Of a stretch of DNA of 64,000 nucleotides, positions 5,686 to 42,295 are shown in pieces. A model generated the notes under the pieces. The model had not been told where the DNA came from, did no database searches, and worked only from the letters and a program-made list of their open reading frames with translations. Position 1 is the stretch's first letter, and the number at the start of each line of letters is the position of its first letter. Source of the stretch: Thermoanaerobaculia bacterium (GTDB lineage Bacteria > Acidobacteriota > Thermoanaerobaculia > UBA5066); NCBI GenBank assembly GCA_038245905.1, contig JBBRRY010000005.1:32001-96000 (forward strand), given 5' to 3'. Position numbers and translations under genes: made by a program.

Positions 5686-8600
5686 TCAGCGCCTCACCCA
5701 AACGGGCGACGACCACGCCTGCTCGCCGTCGGCCTGGGTGACGCGCACGTACCAGCTCGTCTCCCCCGACGCGTCCGGGGAATCCTGCACGGCGAAGGAA
5801 ACGCGCCGCGTATCCGCCGCGGGGAGCCACGTGACCCCCTGCGGGTCTTTCGGGTCGTAGAGGACGTACGCGCCATCCGGTGCGCCCGGCGTCTGGCGCA
5901 TCCGGACCGCCGCAAATGTGTCCCGGAGGTTCCGGACGATCTCGACGCGGTCGATCGCGGCGGTGCCCTCCACGCGGACCGCGAACGTGAGCGGCCCGTT
6001 CGATTTCAGAATCGAGCCCATCGGAGCGCCGTCCGCCGTGAACTCGAGGACGATCCGCGCGCCCGTCGTCGCGTAGTTCCGGCGGTTCCGGATCGCCTCG
6101 AAGATCGAGGCGCGGTCGAGCGTCTCGGCGAGGACGGCCGTGAGGCCGCCCTCCCCCGGCGAGAGATGATGCGTGTCGCTCGCCCCCATGGCGCCAACGT
6201 GGCGGCCGAGGCGAAGGGCGTCCTGGTACTGGTGGCCCGGCACCTGCCGCCGGCCCTCGCGCGGGTTGCCGTAGAACTCGTACCGCCCGTGCCATGAGGC
6301 GATCTCGAAGTTCGGCTCGAGGGCCTCGTCGTGCGGCGCGGCCGGGTTCCACCTGCCCCAGAGGGCGTGCCCCGTGTGGTGCGGTGACATCACGGCGTCG
6401 TGCTCTTTCGCGTGGCGGTAGAGCTTCTCGATCGTGTCGCTGTCCGGATCCGACGAGCGCAGCGTGCGGTCCGGCCCGTCGTCCTTGTAGAGAAGGACGC
6501 GGTGGCCGAACGCGGACCCCGCCGTCCACTCCCATCCCGAGAGGCTGACGAAGCGGCCGGGCGCGTCGAAGGCGGCCGCCGTCGCGCGGAGCTCGGCAAA
6601 CTCCGACGGCTGGAGGAGTCCCATCTCGGAGTGGTCGCTCACGACCGCGAAGTCGAGACCGAGGCGATCGCGTGAGAGCCAGAGAAGCTGATCGGGGAGA
6701 CCGGTCTTCGCGTCGGAAAGCACGCTATGGCTGTGCGGGTCGCCGAAGTAGACGTGCCAGCGGCCGCCTCCCGCCGTCGCCGTCCGCGGCTCCGGCCCCG
6801 CGGTGCGCGGCTCGAGGTCGGGCAGCGCGTCGAAGTGGTCGGGCGGCGCCGCCGCGATCTCCCCCGGCGTCCAGCCGTCTCGGGAGGCCGTGAGCCGCCC
6901 GAGGAAGACGACGTTGCGGCTCGAGTGCGTGTTGTAGGCGTCGACGTCGCCGCCCTCCACCTTTTCGCCCGGCTTCGGCAGCGCTTGCCCCTCCCACGCA
7001 AGCGCGAGGGACCCGTCGGGCGCAAGAGCCGCCGCGGGAAACTCGTCGCGGCCGGGCGAGAACGTCGTGAGGTGCAGCTCCGGCGACCAGCGTTGTCCGT
7101 CGTGGACGCGCGCCCAGAGGTCGAAATTGTGCGCGCCCGTCGCGTCCGTCCTCCAGACGATCCACGCGCGCCCCGCACCGTCGAGAAAGACGGATGGATA
7201 GTTCTGCGTCTGCTTCCAGTGCCAGTAGGGCTCCTCCGTGTCACGGACCGACTTGTCCACCATGCCGAAGCTGACCTGGCCCGGCAAGGCGGAGGGCGCG
7301 ACGCCGACCGGCGCCGCGAACACGCCGTCCTTGTACGTGCGGACGAAGGCGTCCCCGGAGTGCCGGTCGGCGCGGAAGAGGTCCGCCGAGTGGCCGCGCA
7401 TCGAGTTCCACGCAATCCAGAGCGTCCCGTCCTTCGCGCAGGCGAGGGATGGCGAGTCGTCGATCGCGGCGTCCGACGTCACCGGGACGGGCGCCTCGAG
7501 ACGGGGCGCCGCGCCTCCAGAAAGGCGCGCCCGCGCGACAAAGACGTCAAGGTTGCCGGTCCGCGTCGAGTCCCACGCGAGCCACATGCCGCCGTCCGGC
7601 GGAGCCGCGAGGGCAGGCCGCCGGTCAGTCCCGTCGCTCGCGATCCGCATGGGTGCGCTCCAGCCCGAGTCGCGCGCCGCGACGAGCGAGATCCCGAAGC
7701 CACCCCTCTTGAGGAACTCCCACGCGACCCAAAGTCGGCCTGTCGCATCCAGAGCCACTGAGGGATGCAAAGCGTCTTCCCCCTTCAAAGAAATCCTGTT
7801 CTCCGGCCCCCACCCGTCGCCGCCCCGCGCGCGCGAATAGACCGCCCAGCCGCCCTTTCTCTTGCCGTGCCAGAAGACCCGGATGCGTTTCTTCCCGTCG
7901 AGGACGAGCTTCGCGCCGGACTCCAGGCCCTCGCCGGCGTCGAGACGCTCCTCCTCCGCCCACGCGCTCCCTTTCCGACGGCGGACGACGACGCGGTCGT
8001 TTCCGCCGTCCGTAGACGTGTACGCGCACCAGAGGTCGCCCGCGGCGTCGAACGCGATGGACGGGTACTTGTCGAAACGCCCGGGCTTCGAGAGGGTCGC
8101 GACGCCGTCGAGAGCCGAGGGCGCCGTGGGTATTGGGACGAAGCGCCCGCCCGCTGGTGGCTCGACTCGTCCCGCTTCTCGCAGGAATTCCGCCACGACG
8201 TCCGAGAGGAGGACGCCACCGTCCGCGACCCCTGCCGCTTTCAGGAACGTCTGGTAGAGGTCGCCCCCCTGCGCGATGAAGCTGTTCGTCGCGACGCGGT
8301 AGGTTCGCGCGTCGTCGAGCGGCCGGCCGCCGATCCCCACCGAAAGAAGGCGCGCTCCCGGCGGATGCCCGAGGTCGTACGTGCCGGCCAGGCCCGAAAC
8401 CTGGATGAGACCCCGCTCGAGCGTAAGGCCCTGCTCGAGAAACTCGCGGATCTGCTTTCCCGTCAGCTCGAGGGTCACGAGGGAGTTCACGAACGGGAGC
8501 GCGTCGATCACGTTCGCGCGCGTGACGGGACCGGCGGGAAGGTCGGCCCGGAGCCCGCCCGCGTTCTCGAACGCGACCTCGGCACCCGATTTCAGGCGCA

Positions 8601-9681
8601 TGACGTCGGCAACGAAGTCCCCCAGCGAAGACTCGGCCCGGTAGTCGCGGACGAGGCGCTTCGTGAGCGTCCCCGCGGGCGCGCCGGCGGCTTTCCGGGC
8701 CTCTTCGCGATAGGGCGCGAAAAGTGCGACGACCGCCGGGTCGGGCGGCAGCTCGTCGGACCGCACCTCGAGGAGCTCGCCGCGGTAATCCGCGACGCGA
8801 CCGTTCCGGAGCTTGAGCTTCAGATACCCGAGGCGCGTCCCGTAGCCGTACGTCTGGACGATGAGCGTCCCCGTCTTCGGGTGGACGTAGGGTTTCTCGA
8901 TCCCGCGGTGAGCGTGGCCACCGACGAACACGTCGATCCCCGGGACGGCGCCCGCGAGCGCGATGTCCTCGGCGAAGTCACGCTGGACCTCGGGGCGCGC
9001 CTCGGCATCCGTCTGCATCGGGCCCGTCTTTCCCTGGTGGGCGAGCACGACGACGAGGTCGACCCTCGGGCGCAGCTCCTTCACGGCCGCGCGGACTTCC
9101 TCGACGGGGTCCGTGAAGTCCAGCGACGTGATGCCGGACGGGAGCGCGACGCTGCGCGCGTCCATTCCGATGATTCCGATGACGCCGACTCTCAGGCCGT
9201 CCCGCTCGAGAATCACCCAGGGCGGTGCGTAGCGCTTCCCCGTCGCCTTCTCGTAGATGTTCGCGCCGAGCACCGGGAACGAGGCTCCCCTCATGAGCGG
9301 CGTGAAGACGGCCGAGCCGTAGTCGAACTCGTGGTTCCCGATCGCCATCGCGTCGACCTTCAAGACGTCCCATAGGCGCATGAGCGCCTCGCCCTTCGTC
9401 AGGAACGAAAACGTCCCCGTGAAGAGGTCGCCCGAGTCGAACAGGAACGTCGTCTTCTCGCGTGCGCGGATCCGGTTGATCAGCGTCGAGAGCTGCGCGG
9501 CGCCGCCGAGCTGAGGCGAGCCCGGACGCCAGTAGGCCGGGATCGGATCGATCGCGGAGTGAAAGTCGTTCGTATAGAGGATCGTGACCTCACGCTCGGC
9601 GGCGGCAGGAGGTGCGGCAAGGGAGGAGGAGGCCAGACCCGCGGCGACGAGGAGGCATGAAGCGGCGCGCAGCGATTTCAT
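5686..9681 (-). CDS. Large secreted multidomain hydrolase: 5'-nucleotidase (UshA-like), beta-propeller-like repeats, PHP/DUF3604-like metallohydrolase
   Basis: Signal peptide; TNDFHS, DSGD, GNHEFDYG, GGHAH, NAGGLRA; repeated PSIA.D..G..W..W units; FGDPHSHS, VSDH, GWEWT, ASDTH. Confidence 0.8.
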   Translation of the reverse strand: MKSLRAASCLLVAAGLASSSLAAPPAAAEREVTILYTNDFHSAIDPIPAYWRPGSPQLGGAAQLSTLINRIRAREKTTFLFDSGDLFTGTFSFLTKGEALMRLWDVLKVDAMAIGNHEFDYGSAVFTPLMRGASFPVLGANIYEKATGKRYAPPWVILERDGLRVGVIGIIGMDARSVALPSGITSLDFTDPVEEVRAAVKELRPRVDLVVVLAHQGKTGPMQTDAEARPEVQRDFAEDIALAGAVPGIDVFVGGHAHRGIEKPYVHPKTGTLIVQTYGYGTRLGYLKLKLRNGRVADYRGELLEVRSDELPPDPAVVALFAPYREEARKAAGAPAGTLTKRLVRDYRAESSLGDFVADVMRLKSGAEVAFENAGGLRADLPAGPVTRANVIDALPFVNSLVTLELTGKQIREFLEQGLTLERGLIQVSGLAGTYDLGHPPGARLLSVGIGGRPLDDARTYRVATNSFIAQGGDLYQTFLKAAGVADGGVLLSDVVAEFLREAGRVEPPAGGRFVPIPTAPSALDGVATLSKPGRFDKYPSIAFDAAGDLWCAYTSTDGGNDRVVVRRRKGSAWAEEERLDAGEGLESGAKLVLDGKKRIRVFWHGKRKGGWAVYSRARGGDGWGPENRISLKGEDALHPSVALDATGRLWVAWEFLKRGGFGISLVAARDSGWSAPMRIASDGTDRRPALAAPPDGGMWLAWDSTRTGNLDVFVARARLSGGAAPRLEAPVPVTSDAAIDDSPSLACAKDGTLWIAWNSMRGHSADLFRADRHSGDAFVRTYKDGVFAAPVGVAPSALPGQVSFGMVDKSVRDTEEPYWHWKQTQNYPSVFLDGAGRAWIVWRTDATGAHNFDLWARVHDGQRWSPELHLTTFSPGRDEFPAAALAPDGSLALAWEGQALPKPGEKVEGGDVDAYNTHSSRNVVFLGRLTASRDGWTPGEIAAAPPDHFDALPDLEPRTAGPEPRTATAGGGRWHVYFGDPHSHSVLSDAKTGLPDQLLWLSRDRLGLDFAVVSDHSEMGLLQPSEFAELRATAAAFDAPGRFVSLSGWEWTAGSAFGHRVLLYKDDGPDRTLRSSDPDSDTIEKLYRHAKEHDAVMSPHHTGHALWGRWNPAAPHDEALEPNFEIASWHGRYEFYGNPREGRRQVPGHQYQDALRLGRHVGAMGASDTHHLSPGEGGLTAVLAETLDRASIFEAIRNRRNYATTGARIVLEFTADGAPMGSILKSNGPLTFAVRVEGTAAIDRVEIVRNLRDTFAAVRMRQTPGAPDGAYVLYDPKDPQGVTWLPAADTRRVSFAVQDSPDASGETSWYVRVTQADGEQAWSSPVWVRR
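7782..7795 (+). repeat. Dispersed motif CCTTCAAAGAAATC (exact copy)
   Basis: gtcttcccCCTTCAAAGAAATCctgttctcc inside the nucleotidase CDS. Confidence 0.85.
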
Positions 9682-9727
9682 GAGTGCGGAGTGTATCGGC
9701 GGGCGCGCCAACGCTGTAACATCAACC

Positions 9728-10405
9728 ATGCCGCCCCGGATCGACATCGTCTCGCTCCTTCCCGAGGGCCGCGTCTCGTGGGACGCGGCCTTCGCGCTTC
9801 AGAAAGAGGCCGAGGCGCGGGTGAAGGCAGGCGGACGCGAGACGCTCTTCCTGCTCGAGCACACCGACGTCATCACGGCGGGCCGCAACGCTGACCTCGG
9901 CGAGCTTCTGGTCTCCGAGGACCTCCTCTTGCAAAGAGGCGTCCAGCTTCGGATCACGGACCGCGGCGGCAAGCTCACATTCCACGGTCCCGGCCAGCTC
10001 GTCGTCTACCCGGTCCTCGACCTCTCGCATGGACTGCGCGACGTGCGGCAATACGTGCACGACCTCGAAGAGGTGCTCATCCGCAGCGCGGCCGACTTCG
10101 GCGTCGCGGCCGCGCGCAGCGCCGCACCGGAGCGATGGGCCTCGGTCTGGGTGGGAAACGACAAGCTCGCGGCGATCGGCGTCCATCTTTCGCGCTGGGT
10201 CACGACGCACGGCGCCGCCCTGAACGTCGCGACGGACCTGGCAAGGTTTTCGCTCTTTATTCCATGCGGGATCGCCGACGGCGGCGTAACGTCTCTTTCA
10301 GGAGAGAACCCGGGGAATACGCCGCCGGCCCTGCACGAGGTCGCAGACTGTTTCGTGAGCCACTTTCTCGAGGTCTTCGAAAGGGAGAAGGGTGACGCGC
10401 CATGA
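9728..10405 (+). CDS. lipB: Lipoyl(octanoyl) transferase
   Basis: LLEHTDVITAGR, TDRGGKLTFHGPGQLVVYP, KLAAIGV, HGAALNV, IPCGI. Confidence 0.95.
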   Translation: MPPRIDIVSLLPEGRVSWDAAFALQKEAEARVKAGGRETLFLLEHTDVITAGRNADLGELLVSEDLLLQRGVQLRITDRGGKLTFHGPGQLVVYPVLDLSHGLRDVRQYVHDLEEVLIRSAADFGVAAARSAAPERWASVWVGNDKLAAIGVHLSRWVTTHGAALNVATDLARFSLFIPCGIADGGVTSLSGENPGNTPPALHEVADCFVSHFLEVFEREKGDAP

Positions 10406-11632: not shown

Positions 11633-11697
11633 GGGGCCTCCTCCGTATTGAGATGAGTTCTCGGGCGGATCCTATCGCGTCCCGGTACACTCGGCCC

Positions 11698-12612
11698 GTG
11701 AGCGCGGACGCCCGCCCCCGCTACGGAATCACGCCCCGGCCGGATTGGCTGAAGGTGCACGTGCACGACAACGAGCTGTCGCGCGGCATCGCGGCACTCG
11801 TGGTGGACAAGCACCTCAATACGGTCTGCCAGGAAGCCCGCTGCCCAAATCTCTTCGAGTGCTGGGGAGTCGAAAAGACCGCCACCTTCATGCTCATGGG
11901 TGACGTCTGCACGCGGCACTGCGGCTTCTGCGCGGTCACACAGGGGGCCGGAAAGCCGCTCGATCCCGAGGAGCCGCGGCACGTCGCCGAGGCCGTCAAG
12001 ACGCTCGGAGTCCGCCACGCGGTCGTGACCTCCGTCAACCGCGACGAGCTGCCCGACGGCGGTGCCGCACACTTCGCCGCCACGATCAGAGAGATTCGGA
12101 GCCTCAGCCCCGGCGTCACAGTCGAGGTCCTCATTCCGGACTTCCTCGGGAGCGAGGCCGCGCTCAGGACGGTCCTCGACGAGGCGCCCGAAGTCTTGAA
12201 CCACAACGTCGAGACCGTCGAGCGCCTCTATCGCCGGGTGCGCCCGGACGCGATCTACGCGCGGTCGCTCGAGCTGCTCGCGCGAGCGGCGGGGAGGAGA
12301 GACGAAGAGAAAGAGAAGAAGAAGATTTTTTTGAAGGTGAAGAGCGGCTTGATGGTCGGCCTCGGCGAAACTCGTGAGGAGCTCTCTCGGGCGCTCAGCG
12401 ACCTGCGCGCGGCGGGTGTCGACGTCGTCACCGTGGGCCAGTACCTGCAGCCGCACGCACGGCGGCTCCCGATCGAGCGCTACGTCACCCCGCAGGAGTT
12501 CGAGGAGATCCAGAGAGAGGGAACGGAAATGGGATTCTCGAGGGTGGAATCAGGGCCGCTCGTGCGGTCTAGCTATCACGCGAGAAGGGCGCTTCCCCCT
12601 CCTACCTTCTAA
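11698..12612 (+). CDS. lipA: Lipoyl synthase
   Basis: CQEARCPNLFEC, CTRHCGFC, NHNVETV, KSGLMVGLGE, GQYLQP, PLVRSSYHA. Confidence 0.97.
   Translation: MSADARPRYGITPRPDWLKVHVHDNELSRGIAALVVDKHLNTVCQEARCPNLFECWGVEKTATFMLMGDVCTRHCGFCAVTQGAGKPLDPEEPRHVAEAVKTLGVRHAVVTSVNRDELPDGGAAHFAATIREIRSLSPGVTVEVLIPDFLGSEAALRTVLDEAPEVLNHNVETVERLYRRVRPDAIYARSLELLARAAGRRDEEKEKKKIFLKVKSGLMVGLGETREELSRALSDLRAAGVDVVTVGQYLQPHARRLPIERYVTPQEFEEIQREGTEMGFSRVESGPLVRSSYHARRALPPPTF
12324..12337 (-). repeat. Dispersed motif, 1 mismatch (CCTTCAAAAAAATC)
   Basis: Within a purine-rich stretch of lipA (EEKEKKKIFLKVK). Confidence 0.75.
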
Positions 12613-22166: not shown

Positions 22167-23081
22167 TTGAGGGAGAGTGAGAACGTAACTGCGCCCCTCA
22201 GGCGGTCCCTCGCCGTCCTCGCCGCGCTCACCTCCATCGTCATCTGGGCGGTGAACTACCCCGCCATGAAGGTCGCCTTTCGCGAGCTCTCCCCGCTGGC
22301 GTTCACCGGCTGGCGATTCCTTCTCGCCACGACGTTCCTCTTCGCGGAGGCTCTCGTCCGGCGGGAGCCCCTCGTCCCGCCGCCCGGAGCGCGCGGCCTC
22401 GCCCTTCTGCTCGCTCTGTCCGGTGTCGGCCTTTACCAATGGCTCTACGCGCTCGGACTCGCCTCCACGAGCGGTTTTTCCGCGGCCCTCCTGAACTCCG
22501 TCTCTCCGCTCATCGCGATGCTGCTCGTCGTCCTCCTCGGCTGGGAGCACATGTCGAAACTCGCGGGCGCGGGCTCGCTTCTGGCATGGGGCGGTGTTGC
22601 CCTCTTCGTCACCTCGGCCCGCGGCGCGGACTTCGGGAGCACCGCGGGAAACCTCATGTGCCTCGGAGCCGCCACGTCCTGGGCCGTCTACAACGTGGTG
22701 TCGGTCCGCGCCGGCCGGCTGCTCTCGCCTCGCGCCGCCCAGCTCGCGACCTTCGGCGGCGGGACCGTCCTGATTCTAGCGTACGCCCTGCCCGACATGC
22801 TCCGGCAGGACTATGCGCGCGTGAGCCCGTTCACATGGGCGCTCGTCGTTTTTTCGGCGATCCTTCCCCTCGCCGTCGCCTTCCGTCTCTGGCTCGAAGC
22901 CGTGCGTTCGCTCGGCGTCGCGCAGGCGACGAGCTTCGGCTTCCTCGTGCCCGTGCTCGCCGGCATCGCGTCGGCGATATTCACGGGCGAGCGCTTCGAC
23001 GCGCGGAAGGTCTTGTCGGCGGCCGTCGTTCTCTCCGGCCTCGCGCTCATCCGGATCGCGCGAACGAAGGGCACGACCTGA
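22167..23081 (+). CDS. DMT/EamA family transporter
   Basis: IWAVNYPAMK, about 10 TM helices, duplicated EamA pattern, GERF; start uncertain (TTG). Confidence 0.88.
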   Translation: MRESENVTAPLRRSLAVLAALTSIVIWAVNYPAMKVAFRELSPLAFTGWRFLLATTFLFAEALVRREPLVPPPGARGLALLLALSGVGLYQWLYALGLASTSGFSAALLNSVSPLIAMLLVVLLGWEHMSKLAGAGSLLAWGGVALFVTSARGADFGSTAGNLMCLGAATSWAVYNVVSVRAGRLLSPRAAQLATFGGGTVLILAYALPDMLRQDYARVSPFTWALVVFSAILPLAVAFRLWLEAVRSLGVAQATSFGFLVPVLAGIASAIFTGERFDARKVLSAAVVLSGLALIRIARTKGTT

Positions 23082-23140
23082 CCTTTCCTGGAACGTCCTG
23101 TCTCCCCCGCGCTAGGATCGCGGGAATTCACGGAGGTTCG

Positions 23141-24469
23141 ATGTACCGTTCCGTCGCCCGCGTCGTCGATCTCACCGATCCCGCGCTTAACCAGCTCCGG
23201 GGAGTCTCTCTCGCCGAGGCACGAGCGTGCGTCGCTTCGGGCGACGCTGCGGCCGCCTCCGCTCTCGACGGGTCGTACGCCCTCGTAGGCGTGGACGGCA
23301 TCACCGTGCGGCTCGCGCGTTCGCTGGATCGCCCGCTCCGCTACTTCCTCGCGAAGGAGGCGGACGGCCCGATTCTCGTCGTCGCGGACCGGATCGACGC
23401 CGTGCACGACTGGCTGAAAGAGCACGGGCACGGTGATCAGTTCCACCCGAGCTATACGCGCATGGTTCCGGCGCACCACGTCGTCACGCTGCGGCTCGTG
23501 GGCTGCCCGGATCCGGCGCCAACTTATGTGCGGACGTTCACACCGGCACGAAATGTCCTTCCGCAGGACCTCGACGAGATCGGGCGCCTCTACGTCGGGG
23601 CGCTCGCCGACGAGATCGCGAAATGGGTCGAGTCGATTCCCGCCCACGAGCCGATCGGCGTCACCTTTTCCGGCGGCATCGACAGCGGCGCGGTCTTTCT
23701 CGTCACGCACCACGTCCTTCACCACCTCGGCCTCGGTCCCGCGCGCCTCAAGGCCTTCACGCTCTCGGCCGGGAACGGCCCCGACCTCGAGCAGGCCCGC
23801 TGCTTCCTCGACGCGCTGGACCTCGGTTTCTTCCTCGAGCCCGTCGCCGTCGACCCGGCGTCCCTGAATCCCCGGGAGGCTGTCCGTCTCATCGAGGACT
23901 ACAAGCCTCGCGACGTGGAGTCCGCCACGATGGCGCTCGCGCTCTTGCGCGGAATACGGGAGCGTTATCCGGAGTGGCACTTCGTCCTCGACGGCGACGG
24001 CGGCGACGAGAACTTGAAGGACTACCCCATCGAGGAGAATCCGGAGCTCACGATCCGGAGCGTCGTGAACAACCTGATGCTCTACCAGGAGGGTTGGGGC
24101 GTCGGCTCGCTCAAGCACTCCGAAACGTACACGGGCGGCCAGAGCCGTTCCTCGACGCGCACGTACGCGCCCCTACAGGCATGCGGTTTTGCGGGCTTCA
24201 GCCCGTTCACGAGGCCGCGCGTGATCGCGGTGGCCGAAGGAATTCCGTTCGCCGCATTGACGGAAGGGTCCGTCGAGAAGCTCTACGCGCTGAAGGGCGA
24301 GATCGTCTCGCGGGGTGTCCGCGCGATCACCGGCTTCACGATGCCCGTCTTCCCGAAGCGTCGCTTCCAGCATGGCGCCGGAGGGGACGAGGTGTTCGCG
24401 CGCCTCTTCGGCGACACAGAAGCCCAGTACCGCGCCGCGTTCCTCTCGCGATACATCGGCGCCGCGTGA
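23141..24469 (+). CDS. Asparagine-synthetase-like ATP pyrophosphatase lacking the N-terminal Cys glutaminase nucleophile
   Basis: PP-loop FSGGIDSG, DGDGGDE, SPF; N-terminus MYRSVARV rather than MC; SD GGAGG. Confidence 0.8.
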   Translation: MYRSVARVVDLTDPALNQLRGVSLAEARACVASGDAAAASALDGSYALVGVDGITVRLARSLDRPLRYFLAKEADGPILVVADRIDAVHDWLKEHGHGDQFHPSYTRMVPAHHVVTLRLVGCPDPAPTYVRTFTPARNVLPQDLDEIGRLYVGALADEIAKWVESIPAHEPIGVTFSGGIDSGAVFLVTHHVLHHLGLGPARLKAFTLSAGNGPDLEQARCFLDALDLGFFLEPVAVDPASLNPREAVRLIEDYKPRDVESATMALALLRGIRERYPEWHFVLDGDGGDENLKDYPIEENPELTIRSVVNNLMLYQEGWGVGSLKHSETYTGGQSRSSTRTYAPLQACGFAGFSPFTRPRVIAVAEGIPFAALTEGSVEKLYALKGEIVSRGVRAITGFTMPVFPKRRFQHGAGGDEVFARLFGDTEAQYRAAFLSRYIGAA

Positions 24470-25449
24470 TCGACCTCGAAACCGCGGGCCGCGAGGCTCG
24501 GGACGCGTTCGTCCTCGGCCTCCGGCCGCCGCGAAACGCCGTGGACCCATTCCGTCCGTCCGGATTCTTCGTGGAAGAGGAGCCGCGGCGGGGCGGCGGC
24601 ACGGAGCAGGTCGCGACGGTCCTCCTCACGAATCGCGAGTGCCCGTGGCGCTGCGTCATGTGCGACCTCTGGAAAAACACGCTCGAAGGACCGACGTCGA
24701 AAGGCGCGATCCCGGCGCAGATGCGATTCGCGCTCGAGAGGCTGCCCCCCGCGGCCGTCCTGAAGCTCTACAACGCGGGCAGCTTCTTCGACCGCGCGTC
24801 GATCCCGAAAGACGACCACGAGGAGATCGCATCGCTCGCGCGCGGATTCGAGCGCGTGGTCGTGGAATGCCATCCCGCTCTCGTCGGCGATTCGACGCTG
24901 AAGTTTCGCGATCTCCTCGGCGGCCCGGCGCTCGAGGTCGCGCTCGGGCTCGAGACCGCGCACGCGGAGGCGCTCGAGAAGCTCAACAAGGGGATGACGC
25001 TCGAGGACTTCGAGAACGCGAGCCGCTTTCTCGTGGCTCACGGGGTTCGCGTTCGCAGTTTCATCCTCGTAGGAGTTCCTTTTCTTCGGAGGGAAGAATG
25101 GGCGGAGGCGACCCGCGCGAGCATCGACCTTTCCTTCCGGGCGGGCGCCGAAGCCGTCTCGCTCATTCCCACGCGTCTCGGGAACGGCGCGATGGAGGAG
25201 CTGCAGAGAGAAGGACAGTTCGTCACTCCCACGCTTCGGGATCTGGAGACGGCGCTGGAAGATTTCTTTGAAGGGGAAGACGGACGGGGTGGCGCGCCGA
25301 GTTTCGTTCTCGCGGATCTCTGGGACGCCGACGCTCTTCCGGCGCCTCCCTGTTGCTCGGCCGCCCGCATCGAGCGCCTCCGCTCCATGAACCTCCTTCA
25401 AAGAAATCTTCCTCCCTCTCCCTGCTCGTCGGGCCGCCATCCTTCGTGA
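24466..25449 (+). CDS. Radical SAM protein, RaSEA/TIGR01210-like
   Basis: CPWRCVMC; KLYNAGSFFD, VECHP, LEVALGLETA, LNKGMTLEDF, ILVGVPFL, VSLIPT parallel RaSEA-family motifs; GTGA overlap. Confidence 0.8.
   Translation: MIDLETAGREARDAFVLGLRPPRNAVDPFRPSGFFVEEEPRRGGGTEQVATVLLTNRECPWRCVMCDLWKNTLEGPTSKGAIPAQMRFALERLPPAAVLKLYNAGSFFDRASIPKDDHEEIASLARGFERVVVECHPALVGDSTLKFRDLLGGPALEVALGLETAHAEALEKLNKGMTLEDFENASRFLVAHGVRVRSFILVGVPFLRREEWAEATRASIDLSFRAGAEAVSLIPTRLGNGAMEELQREGQFVTPTLRDLETALEDFFEGEDGRGGAPSFVLADLWDADALPAPPCCSAARIERLRSMNLLQRNLPPSPCSSGRHPS
25261..25274 (-). repeat. Dispersed motif CCTTCAAAGAAATC (exact copy)
   Basis: Plus strand ggaaGATTTCTTTGAAGGggaagac inside the radical SAM CDS. Confidence 0.85.
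25395..25408 (+). repeat. Dispersed motif CCTTCAAAGAAATC (exact copy)
   Basis: CCTTCAAAGAAATCttcctccctctccc; inverted partner of 25261-25274. Confidence 0.85.
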
Positions 25450-26807
25450 AAGAGCTCTTCGATGTCGCGATCGTCGGGTCCGGCTTCGCGGGCTCGCTCC
25501 TCGCGCTCGTCGCGCGTCGCATCGGCCTTTCGGTCGTTCTCCTCGAAAAGGGATCGCATCCGCGCTTCGCGATCGGCGAGTCCACGTCTCCGCTCACGAA
25601 CCTGATGCTCGAGAGTCTCGCGACCCGCTACGATCTGCCGCGCCTCCTCCCTCTGACGAAGTGGGGCCTCTGGCAGGCGACGTACCCGGGGATCGGCGCA
25701 GGCCTGAAACGCGGATTTACGTTCTTCGGCCACGAGGACGGGCGTCCCTTCGCGAACCTCGGCAACGGCCGCGACCGGCATCTCGTCCCCGCGAGTCCCC
25801 GCGACGCGATCGCCGACACACACTGGTACCGCCCCGACGTCGATGCGTTCCTCGTGAAGGAGGCTGCGGACGCCGGCGTCGATTATCGCGATCGCTTCGC
25901 TCTTGACGCCGTCGACCGGAGCGGGGCCGTCTGGGACATCGAGGGTCGGCGGGACGACGCGCCCGCCACGTTTTCGGCGCGCTTCCTCGTGGATGCGACG
26001 GGCCGCGAGACCGCTCTCGCGAGGACTTTCGGCGCTCCACTCGCCTTCTCCGCCGGCATGCCCGCCACGCAGGCTCTCTTCTCCCATTTCGCGGGCGTGA
26101 GGCGCCTCGACTCGATGGCGGAATTCCGGACCACGACCGCACCCCCCTATCCGCTCGACGACGCGGCCGTGCATCACATCTTCGAGGGAGGCTGGATCTG
26201 GGTGCTTCGTTTCGCGAACGGGATCACGAGCGCGGGCGTCGCCGCGACGGAGGCGCTCGCCCGAGACCTCGATTTCGCCGCGGGTGGGCCTGCATGGAGG
26301 AGGCTCCTCGACCGCTTTCCCACGATTCGCGCCCAGTTCAGCGAGGCGCGTGCTCTCCGGGCTTTCGATCACTGTCCGCGGGTCGCGTTCCGGCGGGCCC
26401 GCGCGGCAGGCCTCGGGTGGGCGCTTCTTCCCTCCGCGGCCGCCTTCGCCGACCCGCTCCTCTCGACAGGCTTCCCCCTGACGCTGCTCGGGATCGACCG
26501 CCTCGCGAGCGCTTTCAAGGAAGACTTCGGAACGCCCCGGTTCGACTCGCGCCTTCGGGATTACGAATCGAACACGCTCCAGGAGGCGGACCGCACCGCC
26601 GCGTTCGTCGGATCGCTCTACCGTGTCCTCGGCGACTTTCCGCGCTTCGTCGAACGCGCGTCGCTCTATTTCAGGGCTGCGGAATCCGTGGAGTCGATCG
26701 CCCGCGCACACCTCTCGGGCGACCCCTCGCGCCCGATCGCATTCCTCGACCTGCCGGAGCAAATCGAGGTCAGCGCCTCTTGCGCGACTTCTTCGGCGCC
26801 TTCTTGA
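25446..26807 (+). CDS. Flavin-dependent halogenase-like protein (PrnC-type)
   Basis: GSGFAG, HPRFAIGES, GLKRGF (catalytic Lys position), GWIWVL, FADPLLSTG; GTGA overlap. Confidence 0.8.
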   Translation: MKELFDVAIVGSGFAGSLLALVARRIGLSVVLLEKGSHPRFAIGESTSPLTNLMLESLATRYDLPRLLPLTKWGLWQATYPGIGAGLKRGFTFFGHEDGRPFANLGNGRDRHLVPASPRDAIADTHWYRPDVDAFLVKEAADAGVDYRDRFALDAVDRSGAVWDIEGRRDDAPATFSARFLVDATGRETALARTFGAPLAFSAGMPATQALFSHFAGVRRLDSMAEFRTTTAPPYPLDDAAVHHIFEGGWIWVLRFANGITSAGVAATEALARDLDFAAGGPAWRRLLDRFPTIRAQFSEARALRAFDHCPRVAFRRARAAGLGWALLPSAAAFADPLLSTGFPLTLLGIDRLASAFKEDFGTPRFDSRLRDYESNTLQEADRTAAFVGSLYRVLGDFPRFVERASLYFRAAESVESIARAHLSGDPSRPIAFLDLPEQIEVSASCATSSAPS

Positions 26808-28554
26808 CCGGCCGCGCCGGCTCCGGAGCCGCGCGCATCGTGACCGTCAGCGGCACCGGGCCGTAGAGCGGCGGCGGCGGCCCGCCGAAGAAGCTCACGA
26901 CGGCCGACGCCATGGACTCGGCGAAGGCGTCGCGGAATCCGCGCGTCTTCATGAGAGCGCGGTCCTCCTCGTTGCCGAGATTCGCGAGCTCGACGAGGAC
27001 GCGATTCGGAACCCGGTTGTACCGGAGAACGGCCGGCACCCACTCGCGGCCTCCCCGGATGACGTGCGTACGCACCGGCGAGAACGGATGGACGGGGAGG
27101 CCGGCCTCGCGCAGCGCGGAGACGATGCTGTTCGCGAGGGCCGTGGACGCGCCTTCCGACGCGACGCGCTCCTTGCGGTTGAAGGAGACGACAGGCTGCT
27201 CCTTCACCTCCCGATACCCCGCGTACGCCGGACCCGTCTTGCTGTATCGGTCGCGGAGGTAGCGCTCACCCGGCACGTACACCATCGCGCCGCGCACGGA
27301 CGGGTGCAACGAGTCGGCATGCAGCGAGACGAACACGGTCCTCTCCGGCGGCACCTTCGAGCCGTCCGGCCCCGGCCGCCGGATCAGGCTGTTCGCGAGG
27401 TACCACCGGAGGTTGACGCCAACCGTCGGATCCTGCAGCGAATATGCCGGCTCCGTGAGGAGAACCTGGTTCCGGGCGCTGCGAAGCGCGTCGCGCTCAG
27501 GCACCCTCCACCCGAGGGCCGTGTCCCGCGTCGTCATGAGGACGTCGGCGCGCGTCCTCTCGGAGAGGATCTTCCGTAGCCGGCAGGCGACGTCGTAGAC
27601 ATACGTCGACTCCCACACGCCGCCGTGAAGCGTGCCCGTGTCGCGGCCGCCGTGGCCCGCGTCGAGGATCACGCGTACGCCCGCGAGCCCCCGGGCGATC
27701 TCGGGCCGCGCGAACTGGACCGTCTCGGCCTTCTCCCGCGCGCGCTCCAAAGAGCGTGGGTCGTCTTTCGGCAGAAACTCCTCCGACAAGTATTCGAGGG
27801 GAACCTTCACGGGAAAGCCCACGGGGATCGCGTGGACGTTCTCGACACCGGAACGCGAGGCGATCGTCATGGCGAGCTCGTTCACGTCGACCGCGTCGAG
27901 ACGGCCCGTGAAGCGCACGACGACCGCCGAATAGAGTGCCTCGCCCTTACGGAGCCTGTAGACAGCGTAGCGGCCCTTCTCGTCCTGATCGAAGACGAGG
28001 TTCGGGGGCTCGGTGTCGGGGATGGGCTCGGCGCCCTGGAACGGGCTCGTGAGCAGCTCCGCGGGAATCCGAACCGTTGCGCCGGGAGGGACGACGTCAC
28101 CCGTGAGTCCGTTTTCCTTCGCGAGGGCGGGAGCGTTCTCCGGCGCTCCAGTGAACCACTCGGCGATGTCGACGAGGCGTTCTTCCTCGACGGCGATGTG
28201 GAGCCAACCCGCCGTCGCGCGCACGTCGGACGGGAAAAGCGCCTGGATCGCGGCGCGCCGCGATTCGTCCGAAAGCGCCCCGAAAGAAAGCACCGCGCTC
28301 CGGGAGCCGGAGGCAACTCCCGGCAGAGCGAGAACGCGCTGTGCGGTTGCTTCGTCTTTCGACACGCGGCGCGCGAACCCGGCGGGCGTCTCGCCCTCGA
28401 GAGGCCGCGTTTCGACCGTGATGGCGCCATCTACGCGCTGGACGGTGAAGTCGCGGGACACCTCGACGCGACGGGCCGGGGCGGGCGGGGACGAGGCGGC
28501 CGGAAACAGAAGGAAGGCCGAGACCGCGGCGGCGGCCGCGCGGTGACCGCTCAA
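26770..28554 (-). CDS. N-acetylmuramoyl-L-alanine amidase (Amidase_3) with LysM-like N-terminal region
   Basis: LDAGHGGRD, WE, VSLHAD, VLVELANL; signal-like N-terminus; TTGA overlap with gatA. Confidence 0.88.
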   Translation of the reverse strand: MSGHRAAAAAVSAFLLFPAASSPPAPARRVEVSRDFTVQRVDGAITVETRPLEGETPAGFARRVSKDEATAQRVLALPGVASGSRSAVLSFGALSDESRRAAIQALFPSDVRATAGWLHIAVEEERLVDIAEWFTGAPENAPALAKENGLTGDVVPPGATVRIPAELLTSPFQGAEPIPDTEPPNLVFDQDEKGRYAVYRLRKGEALYSAVVVRFTGRLDAVDVNELAMTIASRSGVENVHAIPVGFPVKVPLEYLSEEFLPKDDPRSLERAREKAETVQFARPEIARGLAGVRVILDAGHGGRDTGTLHGGVWESTYVYDVACRLRKILSERTRADVLMTTRDTALGWRVPERDALRSARNQVLLTEPAYSLQDPTVGVNLRWYLANSLIRRPGPDGSKVPPERTVFVSLHADSLHPSVRGAMVYVPGERYLRDRYSKTGPAYAGYREVKEQPVVSFNRKERVASEGASTALANSIVSALREAGLPVHPFSPVRTHVIRGGREWVPAVLRYNRVPNRVLVELANLGNEEDRALMKTRGFRDAFAESMASAVVSFFGGPPPPLYGPVPLTVTMRAAPEPARPVKKAPKKSRKRR

Positions 28555-30038
28555 CTCACAGCGCCCGGGGCGCGACGCAGGAGAACGCCGGACGCGTCCT
28601 CGAGGACCCGCGCGAGCGCGAAAAGCAGCGGCTCCGCGTCGCCCTTCCCGATTAGCTGCATCCCGATGGGGAGTCCGTCGCGGGAAAAGCCGGACGGTAC
28701 CGAGACCGCCGGAAGGCCCGCCAGGCTCGGCGGGACCGTGAACACGTCGGCGAGATACATCGCGAGCGGGTCGTCCGTCTTCACCCCAAGAAGGAAGGCA
28801 GGTTCGGGCGACGTCGGGCACAGGATGGCGTCCACGTGCCGGAAGGCCGCGGCGAAATCGCGCGCGAGAAGCGCACGCACTTTCTGGGCGCGGCCGTAGT
28901 ACGCGTCGTGATACCCCGACGAGAGTGCAAACGTTCCGAGCAGGATGCGCCGTTTGACCTCGGGACCGAAGCCGCCCGACCGTGTCTCCCGGTAGAGCGC
29001 GGCGAGCGACGCCTCGCCCTTCCTCGCGCCGTACCTCACGCCGTCGAAACGCGCGAGATTCGACGAGGCCTCGGCCGTGGCCGTGAGGTAGTAGACCGGG
29101 ACGGCATAAGGCACGCGCGGGACGGACACCGTCGTCACCACGGCCCCCGCGGCCCGCAGCGTCTCCGCCGCCTGCTCGAAGGACGCCTTCACGTCCGCGT
29201 GCAGGCCTCCCTCCGCGGACGTCGCCTCCGCGAGAAGGCCGATCCGCGTTCCGGGGAGACGCGCCCCGAGCCGCGCGGCCACATCCGGCACCGGAGTCGT
29301 GAGAGCCGTCGCGTCCTTCGGGTCGGCCCCCGCCATCACCGAGAAGGCGCGTGCCCCCTCGTCCACGGACCGCGTGAGCGCGCCCGCCTGGTCGAAGGAC
29401 GACGCGAACGCGATGAGGCCGTAGCGCGAGACGCGCCCGTATGTCGGCTTCCATCCCACGAGGCCGCAGAAAGAGGCCGGCTGGCGCACGGAACCGCCCG
29501 TGTCGGTCCCGATCGAGAGCGGCACAGCGCGAGCGGCGACCGCCGCGGCCGAGCCTCCCGAGGAACCGCCCGGTACGCGCGTCGGGTCCCAGGGGTTTCG
29601 TACCGGGCCGTACGCCGAGTTCTCGTTCGAGGAACCCATGCCGAACGCGTCGCAATTCGTCTTGCCGACGACGACGGCGCCCGCGTCCACGAGCCGCTCG
29701 ACGCACGTCGCATGATCGGGCGACACGAATCCGGCGAGGATCTTCGAGCCCGCCGTCGACGGGCGGTCCGCAACGTTGATGTTGTCCTTGACGGCGAGGG
29801 GGACGCCGGCGAGAGACAGCCGCTCGCCCGCACCGACGCGGCGGTCGATCGCTTCGGCCTCGCGGAGGGTCGCCTCCGGGTCCGTCGAAAGGAACGCCCC
29901 GAACGCTTTCTGCGCCTTCTCGACGCGTGCGAGCGACTCCTCGGCGATCGCGCGGGCCGTCACGCGCCCGGAGCCGACGGCGTCCGCGAGAACGATGAAC
30001 GAACCCTCGAGAAGGGCGGCCGGGGAAAGCTCGGTCAC
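28551..30038 (-). CDS. gatA: Asp/Glu-tRNA amidotransferase subunit A
   Basis: KDNI, GGSSGGS, GTDTGGSVRQPA, EASSNLARFDGVRYG, EVKRRILLGTFALSSGY. Confidence 0.97.
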   Translation of the reverse strand: MTELSPAALLEGSFIVLADAVGSGRVTARAIAEESLARVEKAQKAFGAFLSTDPEATLREAEAIDRRVGAGERLSLAGVPLAVKDNINVADRPSTAGSKILAGFVSPDHATCVERLVDAGAVVVGKTNCDAFGMGSSNENSAYGPVRNPWDPTRVPGGSSGGSAAAVAARAVPLSIGTDTGGSVRQPASFCGLVGWKPTYGRVSRYGLIAFASSFDQAGALTRSVDEGARAFSVMAGADPKDATALTTPVPDVAARLGARLPGTRIGLLAEATSAEGGLHADVKASFEQAAETLRAAGAVVTTVSVPRVPYAVPVYYLTATAEASSNLARFDGVRYGARKGEASLAALYRETRSGGFGPEVKRRILLGTFALSSGYHDAYYGRAQKVRALLARDFAAAFRHVDAILCPTSPEPAFLLGVKTDDPLAMYLADVFTVPPSLAGLPAVSVPSGFSRDGLPIGMQLIGKGDAEPLLFALARVLEDASGVLLRRAPGAVS

Positions 30039-39742: not shown

Positions 39743-40924
39743 TCAGCTCCGGTAGTCCGCGTTGACCGAGACATAGTCGTGCCCCATGTCGCACGAGAGC
39801 TTCCACGCCTTCGCCCGTCCGACCCCAAGGTTCACGACGATGGGAACACGCTCCTTCGAGAAGATCCGGGCGGCCTGACTTTCGCGGTAAGGAGCCGGAA
39901 GGCCGTTCTTCACGAGCGTCAGCGGACCAAGCGTCAGCGAGACGTGCTTCAGCGACAGGCGCGCGCCGCTGCGTCCGACAGCCGCGAGGATACGGCCCCA
40001 GTTCGGGTCGCCGCCGTAGAGCGCCGTCTTCACGAGCGGCGAGGTCGCGACCGCGTGGGCGGCTGCCTTCGCTTCGATTTCGGTGCGGGCGCCGACGACC
40101 GAGATTTCGAGGACGCGCGTCGCTCCCTCGCCGTCGCGCACCATCATCCAGGCGAGCGCCCGGCAGACCTTCGTGAGAGCCGCGCGAAACGCGGCGCCCT
40201 CGCCCGGTCTCCGGAGCTCGCGCCCGCCCATCTCGCCCGAGGCCATCACGAGAAGCGTGTCGTTCGTGGACGTGTCGCCGTCGACGGAGATCGCGTTGAA
40301 GCTCGTGTCGGCGGCCTCGCGGAGCGCCGCCTTGAGGTACGCCGGGCTCGCCGGCGCGTCCGTCATGATGAACGCGAGCATCGTCGCCATGTTCGGGTGA
40401 ATCATGCCCGCGCCCTTCGCGACGCCCACGACGCGGCCGCGCCGCCCGGCGAGGGTGAACGAGGCCTGCGCCACCTTCGGGCCGACGTCGGTCGTGAGGA
40501 TCGCGTGCGATGCGGCCTCGAGGCCCGAGGCCGACAGGCGGCTTTTCGCGTCGGGAAGAGCCGCGCGAATCTTCGCGTCTGGCAGAAGGACCCCGATGAC
40601 GCCCGTGGACGAGACGAGGACCTCTTCTCTCGGGAATCCGAGAAGGGCGGCTGCGGCGTCGCGCACGCGGCGCGCCGCTTCCATCCCGGGCCTGCCCGTG
40701 ATCGCGTTCGCGCAGCCCGCGTTCACGACGACGGCTCGCACCCGGCCGCCGCTGCGCTTCAGATCCGCGGCGCCCAGGACGACGGGTGCCGCCAGAAATT
40801 CGTTTTTCGTGAACAACGCCGCGGCGTTCGCGCCCTTCGCGGCGACGAGAAGCGCGAGGTCGGGGCGCTTCTTGCGAATGCCGGCGCGGACCCCAGACGC
40901 GACGAAGCCCTTCGGGAGCCTCAC
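39743..40924 (-). CDS. argJ: Glutamate N-acetyltransferase / ornithine acetyltransferase
   Basis: NAGCANA.TG, STGVIG, KGAGMIHPNMATML, DGDTSTND, RDGEGAT, DPNWGRI. Confidence 0.97.
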   Translation of the reverse strand: MRLPKGFVASGVRAGIRKKRPDLALLVAAKGANAAALFTKNEFLAAPVVLGAADLKRSGGRVRAVVVNAGCANAITGRPGMEAARRVRDAAAALLGFPREEVLVSSTGVIGVLLPDAKIRAALPDAKSRLSASGLEAASHAILTTDVGPKVAQASFTLAGRRGRVVGVAKGAGMIHPNMATMLAFIMTDAPASPAYLKAALREAADTSFNAISVDGDTSTNDTLLVMASGEMGGRELRRPGEGAAFRAALTKVCRALAWMMVRDGEGATRVLEISVVGARTEIEAKAAAHAVATSPLVKTALYGGDPNWGRILAAVGRSGARLSLKHVSLTLGPLTLVKNGLPAPYRESQAARIFSKERVPIVVNLGVGRAKAWKLSCDMGHDYVSVNADYRS

Positions 40925-42291
40925 GCGCCTCCCGTGAGGCGCCGGACGGCGGCCTTGGCCGCGCGGGCCACCTGCCGCGGAGCGGTGCCGCCCGTGGTGT
41001 CCCGTTTCGCGAGGGCGCGCCTCACGTCGAGCGCCTGCAGGTCCTGGGCCGTGATTTCTTTCGTGGGCCCGAGCGCCGTGAGCGTCACACCCAGCGCCTC
41101 AGCCTCCGCGATCCGGCGACCGATGACGTCGTGCGCTTCGCGGAAGGGCATGCCCCTTTTCGCGAGGGCGTCGGCGAGCTCGGTCGCGAGCAGCCGATCG
41201 TCTGCGGCGGCGAGCGCCATGCGCTCACGATCGAGACGAAGACCCTCGACGAGGCCCGTCAACGCCGGCAACGCGACGGCGAGGACGCCACGCACGCGGA
41301 AGACCGGCTCCTTGTCGAGCTGGAGGTCCTTGTCGTACGCGAGCGGAAGGCCCTTGAGAAGCGCGAGGAGCCCGGTCAGCTCGCCAATCGCGCGGCCCGC
41401 ATGTCCGCGGGCCAGCTCGAGCACGTCCGGGTTCTTCTTCTGTGGCATGCGCGAAGAGCCCGTGGCAAGGGCGTCCGGTAGGGTGGCGAAGGCGAATTCA
41501 TCCGACGTGAAGGCGATGAGGTCTTCCGCGAGCCGCGAGAGATGGACGAGGAGAAGCGTCGCGGCAAAAAGGAATTCCACCGCCGCGTCGCGGTCGGAGA
41601 CGGCGTCGAGCGAATTCGCCGTCGGGCGCAGGAAGCCGAGGCTCCGGGCGAGCGCCTCGCGATCGATCGGAAGAGGCGTGCCCGAGAGCGCGCCGGAGCC
41701 GAGCGGGCACTCGTCCGCGCGCGAGGCCGCGTTGTCGAAGCGGCTCGCGTCGCGGCGGAGCATTTCCACGTAGGCGAGGCACCAATGCCCGAACGTGACG
41801 GGCTCGGCACGCTTCATGTGCGTGTAGCCCGGCATGGGCGTCGCGGCCTCGGCTTCCGCACGGCGCGCGAATGCGAGCGCGAGGGAGCGCGCGGCGGCCG
41901 CGCCCTCGGCGAGAGCGTCCTTGACGTACAGACGGAAGTCGGTCGCGACCTGGTCGTTCCGCGAGCGCCCCGTGTGCAGCTTTCCGGCGAGCGGACCCAC
42001 CTTTGCGGCGAGGCGGGCCTCGACGAACGAGTGCACGTCCTCGTCGTCCGCGTCGTGCGGCACGCCCGTCTTCGCGACCTCGACGCCGATCTCTTCGAGG
42101 CCGGCCACGAGCTTCTTCACGTCTCTCGAAGACAGCACGCCTGCGGCGCCGAGCGCCTCGGCCCAGGCGATCGAGCCTCGCAGGTCCTCGGCGAGGAGCA
42201 CGCGGTCGAACACGAACGAGTCGTTGAAGGCGCGAAGGGCGTGCGCGGGGGGCTCGGAGAAGCGCCCTCCCCAGAGCTGGCGACGGGTCAA
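40921..42291 (-). CDS. argH: Argininosuccinate lyase
   Basis: LWGGRF, LHTGRSRNDQVATD, MPGYTH, GSSRMPQKKNPD. Confidence 0.97.
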   Translation of the reverse strand: MTRRQLWGGRFSEPPAHALRAFNDSFVFDRVLLAEDLRGSIAWAEALGAAGVLSSRDVKKLVAGLEEIGVEVAKTGVPHDADDEDVHSFVEARLAAKVGPLAGKLHTGRSRNDQVATDFRLYVKDALAEGAAAARSLALAFARRAEAEAATPMPGYTHMKRAEPVTFGHWCLAYVEMLRRDASRFDNAASRADECPLGSGALSGTPLPIDREALARSLGFLRPTANSLDAVSDRDAAVEFLFAATLLLVHLSRLAEDLIAFTSDEFAFATLPDALATGSSRMPQKKNPDVLELARGHAGRAIGELTGLLALLKGLPLAYDKDLQLDKEPVFRVRGVLAVALPALTGLVEGLRLDRERMALAAADDRLLATELADALAKRGMPFREAHDVIGRRIAEAEALGVTLTALGPTKEITAQDLQALDVRRALAKRDTTGGTAPRQVARAAKAAVRRLTGGA

Positions 42292-42295
42292 CGTC

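Follow-up and report, generated by a model that had tools for sequence, protein, structure and literature searches.

A conserved cassette of a Cys-less AsnB-like ligase, a RaSEA-related radical SAM enzyme and a halogenase-like flavoenzyme in Acidobacteriota, Verrucomicrobiota and Planctomycetota

This work examines a stretch of 64,000 nt of a Thermoanaerobaculia bacterium contig, called the window throughout, and within it the locus at 22167–26807, in which the sequence and its translations reveal four + strand genes, encoding an EamA-family transporter, an AsnB-like ligase, a radical S-adenosylmethionine (SAM) enzyme and a flavin-dependent halogenase-like enzyme. We report that the last three genes constitute a real, conserved and undescribed combination of enzymes from known superfamilies. 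Whereas a sequence-only reading of the window had described the locus as an orphan mini-pathway, the trio is a widespread conserved cassette whose gene order is shared across three phyla. No published description of a ligase/radical SAM/halogenase combination was found in the literature searched, subscription-only papers lying outside its scope, in agreement with the earlier statement that no described pathway has it. With about even confidence, we propose that the trio is a self-contained pathway acting on a small carboxylic-acid metabolite through amide or lactam formation, radical tailoring and halogenation.

The evidence that carries this finding is the recurrence of the three genes. We compared the 80 best genomic loci related to the window's ligase, which come from Acidobacteriota, Verrucomicrobiota and Planctomycetota; many belong to kindred genomes, so the locus counts are not independent. 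The radical SAM gene is present in 67 of the 80 loci, lying directly downstream of the ligase gene in 66 and 6 kb off in one (L078), and the flavoenzyme gene is present in 56, in every case directly after the radical SAM gene and in the same order. Downstream sequence of at least 2.6 kb is available for 65 loci; 51 of these hold both partners, five the radical SAM gene only and nine neither, and the loci without either partner gene are from Verrucomicrobiota. When five Verrucomicrobiota genomes with a lone ligase were searched whole (their completeness being unknown), a radical SAM orthologue was found elsewhere in three and a flavoenzyme orthologue elsewhere in three, one of the five genomes having all three genes, unlinked. 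The arrangement is far beyond chance, the same gene order recurring in 65–67 of the 80 related loci.

Additionally, the trio was followed through one sample of 201 genomes evenly drawn from the window's phylum, in which the trio counts include the unpublished genome G024. The ligase occurs in 17 of these genomes. Sixteen of the 17, and no others, have the radical SAM gene, in each case next to that of the ligase, while a flavoenzyme orthologue is adjacent in 15 and two more genomes have paralogues at 30–32% identity only. The three enzymes are therefore gained, kept and lost together, with the ligase and the radical SAM enzyme as the core and the flavoenzyme as a frequent third member, and the co-occurrence elsewhere on which the sequence-only reading had made its proposal depend is strong in both data sets. 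The ligase family has thousands of relatives, with 62–67% identity among Acidobacteriota, Verrucomicrobiota and Planctomycetota, and the closest relatives of the window's ligase, at 92%, are from Thermoanaerobaculia metagenome-assembled genomes. A quick ligase tree of 81 rows largely follows the phylum labels, with three changes each for Acidobacteriota and Verrucomicrobiota, and gives no strong evidence for frequent horizontal transfer of the ligase.

In the window, the genes for the ligase (23141–24469, + strand, 442 aa, ATG start), the radical SAM enzyme (24466–25449, + strand, 327 aa, GTG start) and the flavoenzyme (25446–26807, + strand, 453 aa, GTG start) form one translationally coupled operon (23141–26807). 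The GTGA stop/start overlaps that join ligase to radical SAM gene at 24466–24469 and radical SAM to flavoenzyme gene at 25446–25449 are present exactly as had been noted before, and both GTG starts agree with the N-termini in the respective family alignments. Ahead of the operon lies a 59-nt spacer (23082–23140, + strand), in which the Shine-Dalgarno sequence GGAGG (23132–23136) ends 4 nt 5′ of the ligase ATG. The ribosome-binding half of the earlier claim of an own promoter and Shine-Dalgarno sequence thus stands, whereas the TAGGAT at 23113–23118, though present, is unsupported as a −10 element, since a simple consensus scan of the + strand called no sigma-70-like promoter ahead of the ligase gene, TAGGAT included. 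At the other end, the final 38 nt of the flavoenzyme gene overlap a convergent open reading frame (ORF; 26770–29706, − strand) whose product has an Amidase_3 domain. All four genes of the locus are under purifying selection when compared with close relatives, the ratio of nonsynonymous to synonymous substitution rates (dN/dS) being 0.09–0.37 overall, namely 0.09–0.37 for the EamA gene, 0.12–0.27 for the ligase, 0.25–0.31 for the radical SAM enzyme and 0.28–0.32 for the flavoenzyme.

The three enzyme identities proposed earlier proved right at the superfamily level in Pfam and NCBIfam searches, and each can be refined. The ligase matches Asn_synthase (PF00733) with 39.9 bits, above the cut-off of 21, over residues 168–301 only; its synthetase domain carries the motifs SGGIDS (177–182) and DGDGGDEN (284–291), and the PP-loop FSGGIDSG is invariant across the family alignment. 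Against TIGR01536, the equivalog for glutamine-hydrolysing AsnB, it scores 35.8 bits versus a cut-off of 267, and it is not a member of that equivalog. Its N-terminus reads MYRSV, and a Pfam scan gave no match to a GATase domain. None of 13 aligned family members has Cys at position 2, and the glutaminase nucleophile is therefore absent, so that the synthetase had rightly been called glutaminase-less.

The AlphaFold model of the ligase (mean predicted local distance difference test score, pLDDT, 72.7) places it more closely. In Foldseek searches it matched the beta-lactam synthetase 1mc1 over the full length (E 3.9e-12, template modelling (TM) score 0.57), and the best matches were 1mc1, 1jgt and 1mbz (E ~4e-12, TM 0.55–0.58), all of them Cys-less beta-lactam synthetase, with further matches to human ASNS, TsnB9, E. 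coli AsnB and CarA (1q19, 2e-9) and weaker ones that include TtuA-type folds. Because the model matches beta-lactam synthetase over its whole length, residues ~1–165 of the ligase are a vestigial Ntn-type (N-terminal nucleophile) domain, like that of the Cys-less members of the AsnB fold. At the sequence level, a PDB search with the ligase matched only AsnB/ASNS, at E ~4e-4 and over residues 164–295, and no match to beta-lactam synthetase, CarA or CarA_N was obtained by the PDB sequence search or Pfam. Beta-lactam synthetase of the clavulanate pathway, the carbapenam synthetase CarA and TsnB9 are AsnB-fold enzymes whose nitrogen chemistry is non-canonical, and all three share with the ligase the complete fold of two domains, including the PP-loop synthetase domain. 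In beta-lactam synthetase and CarA the N-terminal domain is without the catalytic Cys, and the N-terminal domain of the ligase likewise lacks it. However, the structural-alignment identity of these three proteins to the ligase is just 14–19%, its N-terminal domain is shorter (~165 aa), and their pathways have no radical SAM partner, while the ligase here has one. The stretch 288–336 (DGGDENLKDYPIEENPELTIRSVVNNLMLYQEGWGVG) is the most conserved part of the ligase yet has the lowest model confidence, with pLDDT below 50 and about 30; it is the loop that would bear on ring-closure catalysis, and it may be a mobile active-site lid. A complex prediction for the ligase and the radical SAM enzyme scored 0.00 against a mark of 0.32, which is uninformative on binding either way.

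The radical SAM enzyme carries the cluster motif CPWRCVMC (CX3CX2C), whose C59, C63 and C66 are invariant in the family alignment, and matches Radical_SAM (PF04055) with 28.8 bits, slightly below the cut-off of 29.5. Its best NCBIfam model is TIGR01210 (RaSEA), with 92.5 bits (E 2.8e-26) versus an equivalog cut-off of 212.15, and TIGR01210 is the top family for all 18 aligned members, with a best E-value of 1.5e-34; the same model exceeds its own cut-off in 3 of 14 control genomes. The enzyme is thus related to RaSEA without being a RaSEA equivalog, and it is the closest bacterial RaSEA relative recognised by curated models, yet below the RaSEA cut-off. The earlier label RaSEA-like is accordingly right about the nearest curated family, and equivalog status is what the scores withhold. 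The AlphaFold model of the enzyme has a pLDDT of 92.5, and among solved folds it comes nearest to generic radical SAM barrels, with MtaB and the radical SAM domain of Elp3 in the lead and PylB among the others; a PDB search gave no significant sequence match to any solved chain. Most members of this family, unlike RaSEA, have a C-terminal CxxC…CxxC, which is degenerate (CC…C) in the window's clade and is possibly a Zn or auxiliary-cluster site.

The flavoenzyme matches Trp_halogenase (PF04820) with 44.7 bits versus a cut-off of 21, and contains GSGFAG, a GxGxxG motif for binding flavin adenine dinucleotide (FAD), as well as GLKRGFTF with its Lys, GGWIWVLRF and FADPLLSTG. Its best PDB sequence matches, over residues 5–397, are the tetracycline 7-halogenase CtcP (7xgb; 6e-47, 164 bits) and the phloroglucinol halogenase PltM (6bzt; 2e-44, 156 bits). 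The enzyme had been called a PrnC-like halogenase, and the halogenase superfamily is confirmed, the closest solved relatives found being CtcP and PltM. In the alignment with these two, K88 of GLKRGFTF falls on the Lys of their G-x-K motifs, the catalytic Lys of both enzymes; K88 is nearly invariant in the family alignment, missing only from one distant paralogue; W250 and W252 are invariant across the family. Shared with PltM and CtcP are thus GxGxxG, the aligned Lys in G-x-K-x-x-F-x-F, W-x-W and FxDPxxSxG, and on these motifs the flavoenzyme has what is expected of a halogenase except the 'IP' half of WxWxIP, which reads 'LR' in the window. It differs further from them in length, PltM and CtcP having 522–556 aa and the window's enzyme, at 453 aa, being without most of their C-terminal region, and in its operon, which brings a ligase and a radical SAM enzyme and not a polyketide cluster. 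In the window's enzyme and its closest relatives (L003, L004), the C-terminal helical region is ~50 residues shorter than in a same-genus homologue of 501 aa that has kept the tail (L005:2388-3893), most family members having ~520 aa; the extreme C-terminus …VSxSCAxSSAP is kept in the shortened enzyme, and dN/dS is still about 0.3. A second, distant flavoenzyme paralogue (21% identity) without the halogenase Lys was also observed (L012:4457-5914), with similar genes in five more Acidobacteriaceae loci (L027, L029, L031, L033, L048), and it adjoins genes for a NitT/TauT-type ABC transporter, an HMA-domain protein and DUF169.

The gene directly upstream of the trio (22167–23081, + strand, 304 aa, TTG start) encodes a membrane protein of the EamA family of drug/metabolite transporters, which matches PF00892 with 132.9 bits in two stretches, corresponding to two EamA repeats, and falls below the cut-off of all NCBIfam transporter equivalogs. 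An EamA gene lies upstream in only 4 of the 80 related loci (L002, L003, L004, L006), or 4 of the 72 with upstream room, all from close relatives of the window. Therefore, the EamA gene, which had been counted into the mini-pathway, is a clade-specific neighbour and not part of the conserved unit, although in the window's lineage it is possibly an exporter or importer for the pathway.

Based on these findings, we propose the following course for the pathway on a small carboxylic-acid metabolite, which probably carries an electron-rich aromatic or heteroaromatic ring. As its fold and motifs suggest, the ligase would adenylate the carboxylate with ATP and form an amide or lactam, the amine being supplied by something other than a glutaminase domain of its own. 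Next, the radical SAM enzyme would act on the same intermediate through hydrogen abstraction by a 5′-deoxyadenosyl radical, the outcome being either C–N scission, as in RaSEA, or another rearrangement or cyclisation. Finally, the PltM/CtcP-type flavoenzyme, judged from its conserved motifs, would halogenate the ring by a Lys-guided hypohalous species, and in the window's lineage the upstream EamA protein probably moves the product or the substrate. A small-molecule substrate is favoured because the close relatives of the flavoenzyme, CtcP and PltM, act on free compounds, because this locus leaves no room for a precursor-peptide gene and the related loci share no conserved short ORF, because both the ligase (isoelectric point, pI, 5.8) and the radical SAM enzyme (pI 5.2) are acidic and neither has an RNA-binding domain by Pfam, and because a metabolite transporter lies directly upstream in the window's lineage.

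Several readings compete with this proposal, and one, a legitimate special case of it, is that of the sequence-only reading itself, wherein the ligase adds lysine or another amino-acid amine, the radical SAM enzyme cleaves the donor-side C–N bond to leave a primary amide, replacing the glutaminase, and halogenation follows. The model for it is the ArcS–RaSEA archaeosine synthase of Euryarchaeota, in which RaSEA converts the preQ0-Lys intermediate of ArcS. Like that system, the cassette tightly pairs a RaSEA-related enzyme with an enzyme expected to attach a nitrogen-bearing group, and the missing Cys nucleophile in all 13 aligned ligases, RaSEA as the best curated family of all 18 radical SAM members and the invariant, tightly coupled core of the two enzymes are all consistent with it. 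Unlike in that system, the partner here is an AsnB-fold ligase, which is unrelated to ArcS, the host is bacterial and there is no sign of a tRNA substrate. Moreover, the same chemistry cannot be assumed at 92 bits versus the 212 of the RaSEA cut-off, and nothing in the data points to lysine as a substrate. Beta-lactam synthetase and CarA close rings intramolecularly, so that Cys-less AsnB homologues can function without a donor-trimming enzyme. Although ArcS is reported to move lysine onto preQ0, giving preQ0-Lys (PMC11298593), which also speaks for such a scheme, we consider it unlikely for this cassette. A modification of a nucleic acid is quite improbable in our judgement; on this view the target of the ligase and the radical SAM enzyme would be a nucleobase of tRNA or rRNA or a 7-deazapurine, for example a carboxylated 7-deazaguanine, and the flavoenzyme would decorate the pyrrole ring. 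The nearest families and folds of the radical SAM enzyme are tRNA enzymes (RaSEA, MnmL/YtqA, Elp3, MtaB, MiaB), many PP-loop enzymes modify tRNA and the TtuA-type folds stand among the weaker matches of the ligase, and the share of genomes with a weak or missing QueC in the 201-genome sample is 7 of 17 with the cassette versus 9 of 184 without it. However, QueC is present in ten cassette genomes, and when four QueC-less carriers were tested for QueF, three gave no match and one a weak match, these carriers lacking the entire de novo route and not one step of it. The window's own genome (96% complete) has TGT, QueF and PTPS and gave no match to QueC, and its region syntenic to the QueC neighbourhood of a congener (G154:C23:146500-157500) stops at the end of a 1782-bp contig (G000:C95); because of this contig end and the presence of QueF, PTPS and TGT, its QueC is probably merely unassembled. 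A role of the cassette as a QueC replacement was rejected on these three grounds, and the acidity of the ligase and the radical SAM enzyme, their lack of an RNA-binding domain by Pfam, the patchy distribution (17 of 201 genomes) and the free small molecules on which the flavoenzyme's relatives act also argue against a nucleic-acid substrate.

A protein or peptide is likewise a doubtful target, be it the secreted FG-GAP/UnbV_ASPIC (CRTAC1-like) propellers often encoded beside the cassette or a precursor peptide whose gene lies elsewhere. The chemistry might then be amidation of a C-terminus or side chain, cross-linking by radicals, and halogenation or hydroxylation of a ring. Such propeller genes flank the trio in 37 of the 80 loci and a gene for an RnfD-like membrane protein does so in 22, and UnbV_ASPIC is found in all 17 cassette genomes versus 91 of 184 others in the phylum sample, which for this count includes the unpublished genomes G024, G049 and G152, with seven matches in the window's genome. 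The domain is nevertheless common in the phylum (108 of 201 genomes), the related genomes are not independent, and the window's own genome has its propeller genes away from the cassette, four of the seven being clustered on another contig and none lying in the window. The flavoenzyme also matches the models of the protein-Trp-modifying QhpG (74 bits), GoxB and LodB, though far under their cut-offs, and it is far nearer to CtcP and PltM. Asparagine-synthetase-like (AS-like) enzymes are reported to nitrilate or amidate peptide C-termini and to cyclise lasso peptides, and the PesC nitrile synthetase, the TsrC and ScdTA amidases and the lasso cyclases share with the ligase the superfamily and the ATP-dependent activation of a carboxylate (PMC13060819). 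Their genes adjoin precursor-peptide genes, of which there are none at this locus. They are more distant analogues of the ligase than beta-lactam synthetase, CarA and TsnB9. Since the spacer measures 59 nt and the downstream neighbour is convergent, the window has no room for a precursor gene, and the search for a conserved short ORF in the 700 nt ahead of the ligase gene gave, across the 80 loci, only clusters of at most three loci; these were rejected as precursor peptides, at least one of them being the C-terminal end of an upstream CRTAC1-like gene. No nonribosomal peptide synthetase (NRPS) or polyketide synthase (PKS) domain was found among the Pfam matches of the other window ORFs scanned, and the earlier remark that no NRPS, PKS or precursor peptide is nearby is therefore upheld. 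That unrelated neighbours were packed together by chance can be practically dismissed; the EamA gene alone behaves as such a local neighbour, no evidence of this kind exists for the trio, and the same order and coupling in three phyla and co-occurrence even when unlinked contradict it.

Some observations fit the proposed small-molecule pathway poorly. RaSEA and MnmL/YtqA, the closest curated families of the radical SAM enzyme, act on tRNA, as does Elp3, whose fold it resembles, and no substrate-supply gene of PKS, NRPS or shikimate type adjoins the trio here or in the related loci. In the flavoenzyme, the WxWxIP position reads WIWVLR, with L-R/K/Q in place of 'IP' across the family, and the C-terminal region is shortened in the window's subclade; its gene is moreover absent from some carriers, namely the five roomy loci that bear the radical SAM gene and the genome G119. 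The low-confidence model of residues 288–336 of the ligase permits no statement on the substrate pocket, and the recurrent FG-GAP/UnbV_ASPIC neighbourhood, in 37 of 80 loci and all 17 cassette genomes, is left unexplained.

A bolder form of the small-molecule proposal, which we offer as a tentative and rather improbable idea, is that the ligase and the radical SAM enzyme are a new two-enzyme route for nitrogen installation or ring formation, and that the product is an undescribed halogenated metabolite or cofactor common to Acidobacteriota, Verrucomicrobiota and Planctomycetota. In such a route, the adenylated carboxylate would first receive an amino-acid amine from the ligase, and the resulting adduct would be cut or rearranged by the radical SAM enzyme. 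The ArcS–RaSEA logic, known from a tRNA amidine of archaea, would thereby reach a small molecule of bacteria, and the product might serve alongside the flanking secreted FG-GAP/UnbV_ASPIC and RnfD-like membrane proteins.

As for the surroundings of the cassette, a convergent triplet of FG-GAP/UnbV_ASPIC, RnfD-like and FG-GAP/UnbV_ASPIC genes lies 3′ of the trio in many Acidobacteriaceae (L015, L019, L021, L034; ~10.9–15.3 kb), where a NitT/TauT-type ABC transporter, an HMA-domain protein and DUF169 also occur among the neighbours of the trio. In the window's genome, one query found no RnfD-like protein, and a region on another contig (G000:C1:311000-330900; L092) groups four FG-GAP genes, of which three have UnbV_ASPIC; a Ser/Thr kinase and a Na+/H+ exchanger are encoded next to them. 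Upstream of the locus in the window, on the opposite strand, lies an ABC-transporter cluster (ABC_tran, ABC2 membrane, ABC_transp_aux, DUF4340). An unrelated second radical SAM gene (11653–12612, + strand; PF04055, 62 bits) is located 10 kb upstream; the genes after it encode a LON substrate-binding-domain protein and a YbjQ-like protein. The remaining window is ordinary chromosome with Hcp genes, a 2-oxoacid dehydrogenase complex, an arginine biosynthesis operon, EF-G and other housekeeping genes. The Hcp (type VI secretion) genes are two in tandem at the window edge (25–609 and 849–1766, − strand), an ORF of 1353 aa (5686–9747, − strand) combines metallophosphatase, 5′-nucleotidase C-terminal and DUF3604 domains, and the arginine operon (39743–46791, − strand), identified by Pfam, encodes ArgJ, argininosuccinate lyase, argininosuccinate synthase, a class-III aminotransferase, an amino-acid kinase and a semialdehyde dehydrogenase.

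In conclusion, this work reports a cassette that soil and sediment bacteria from at least three phyla, many of them uncultured and a few in culture, keep intact under purifying selection, with a ligase whose 62–67% identity between phyla is unusually constrained for an accessory gene. The full trio is present in Acidobacterium sp. S8 (L057) and in Acidobacteriaceae bacterium KBS 96 (L073), both of them cultured, so that the question of what it makes is directly testable. An answer would give a function to a bacterial relative of the RaSEA radical SAM family that is still uncharacterised, would probably show the AsnB/beta-lactam synthetase fold put to a new use, and would identify a halogenated metabolite or cofactor that is apparently widespread in phyla that are hard to culture.

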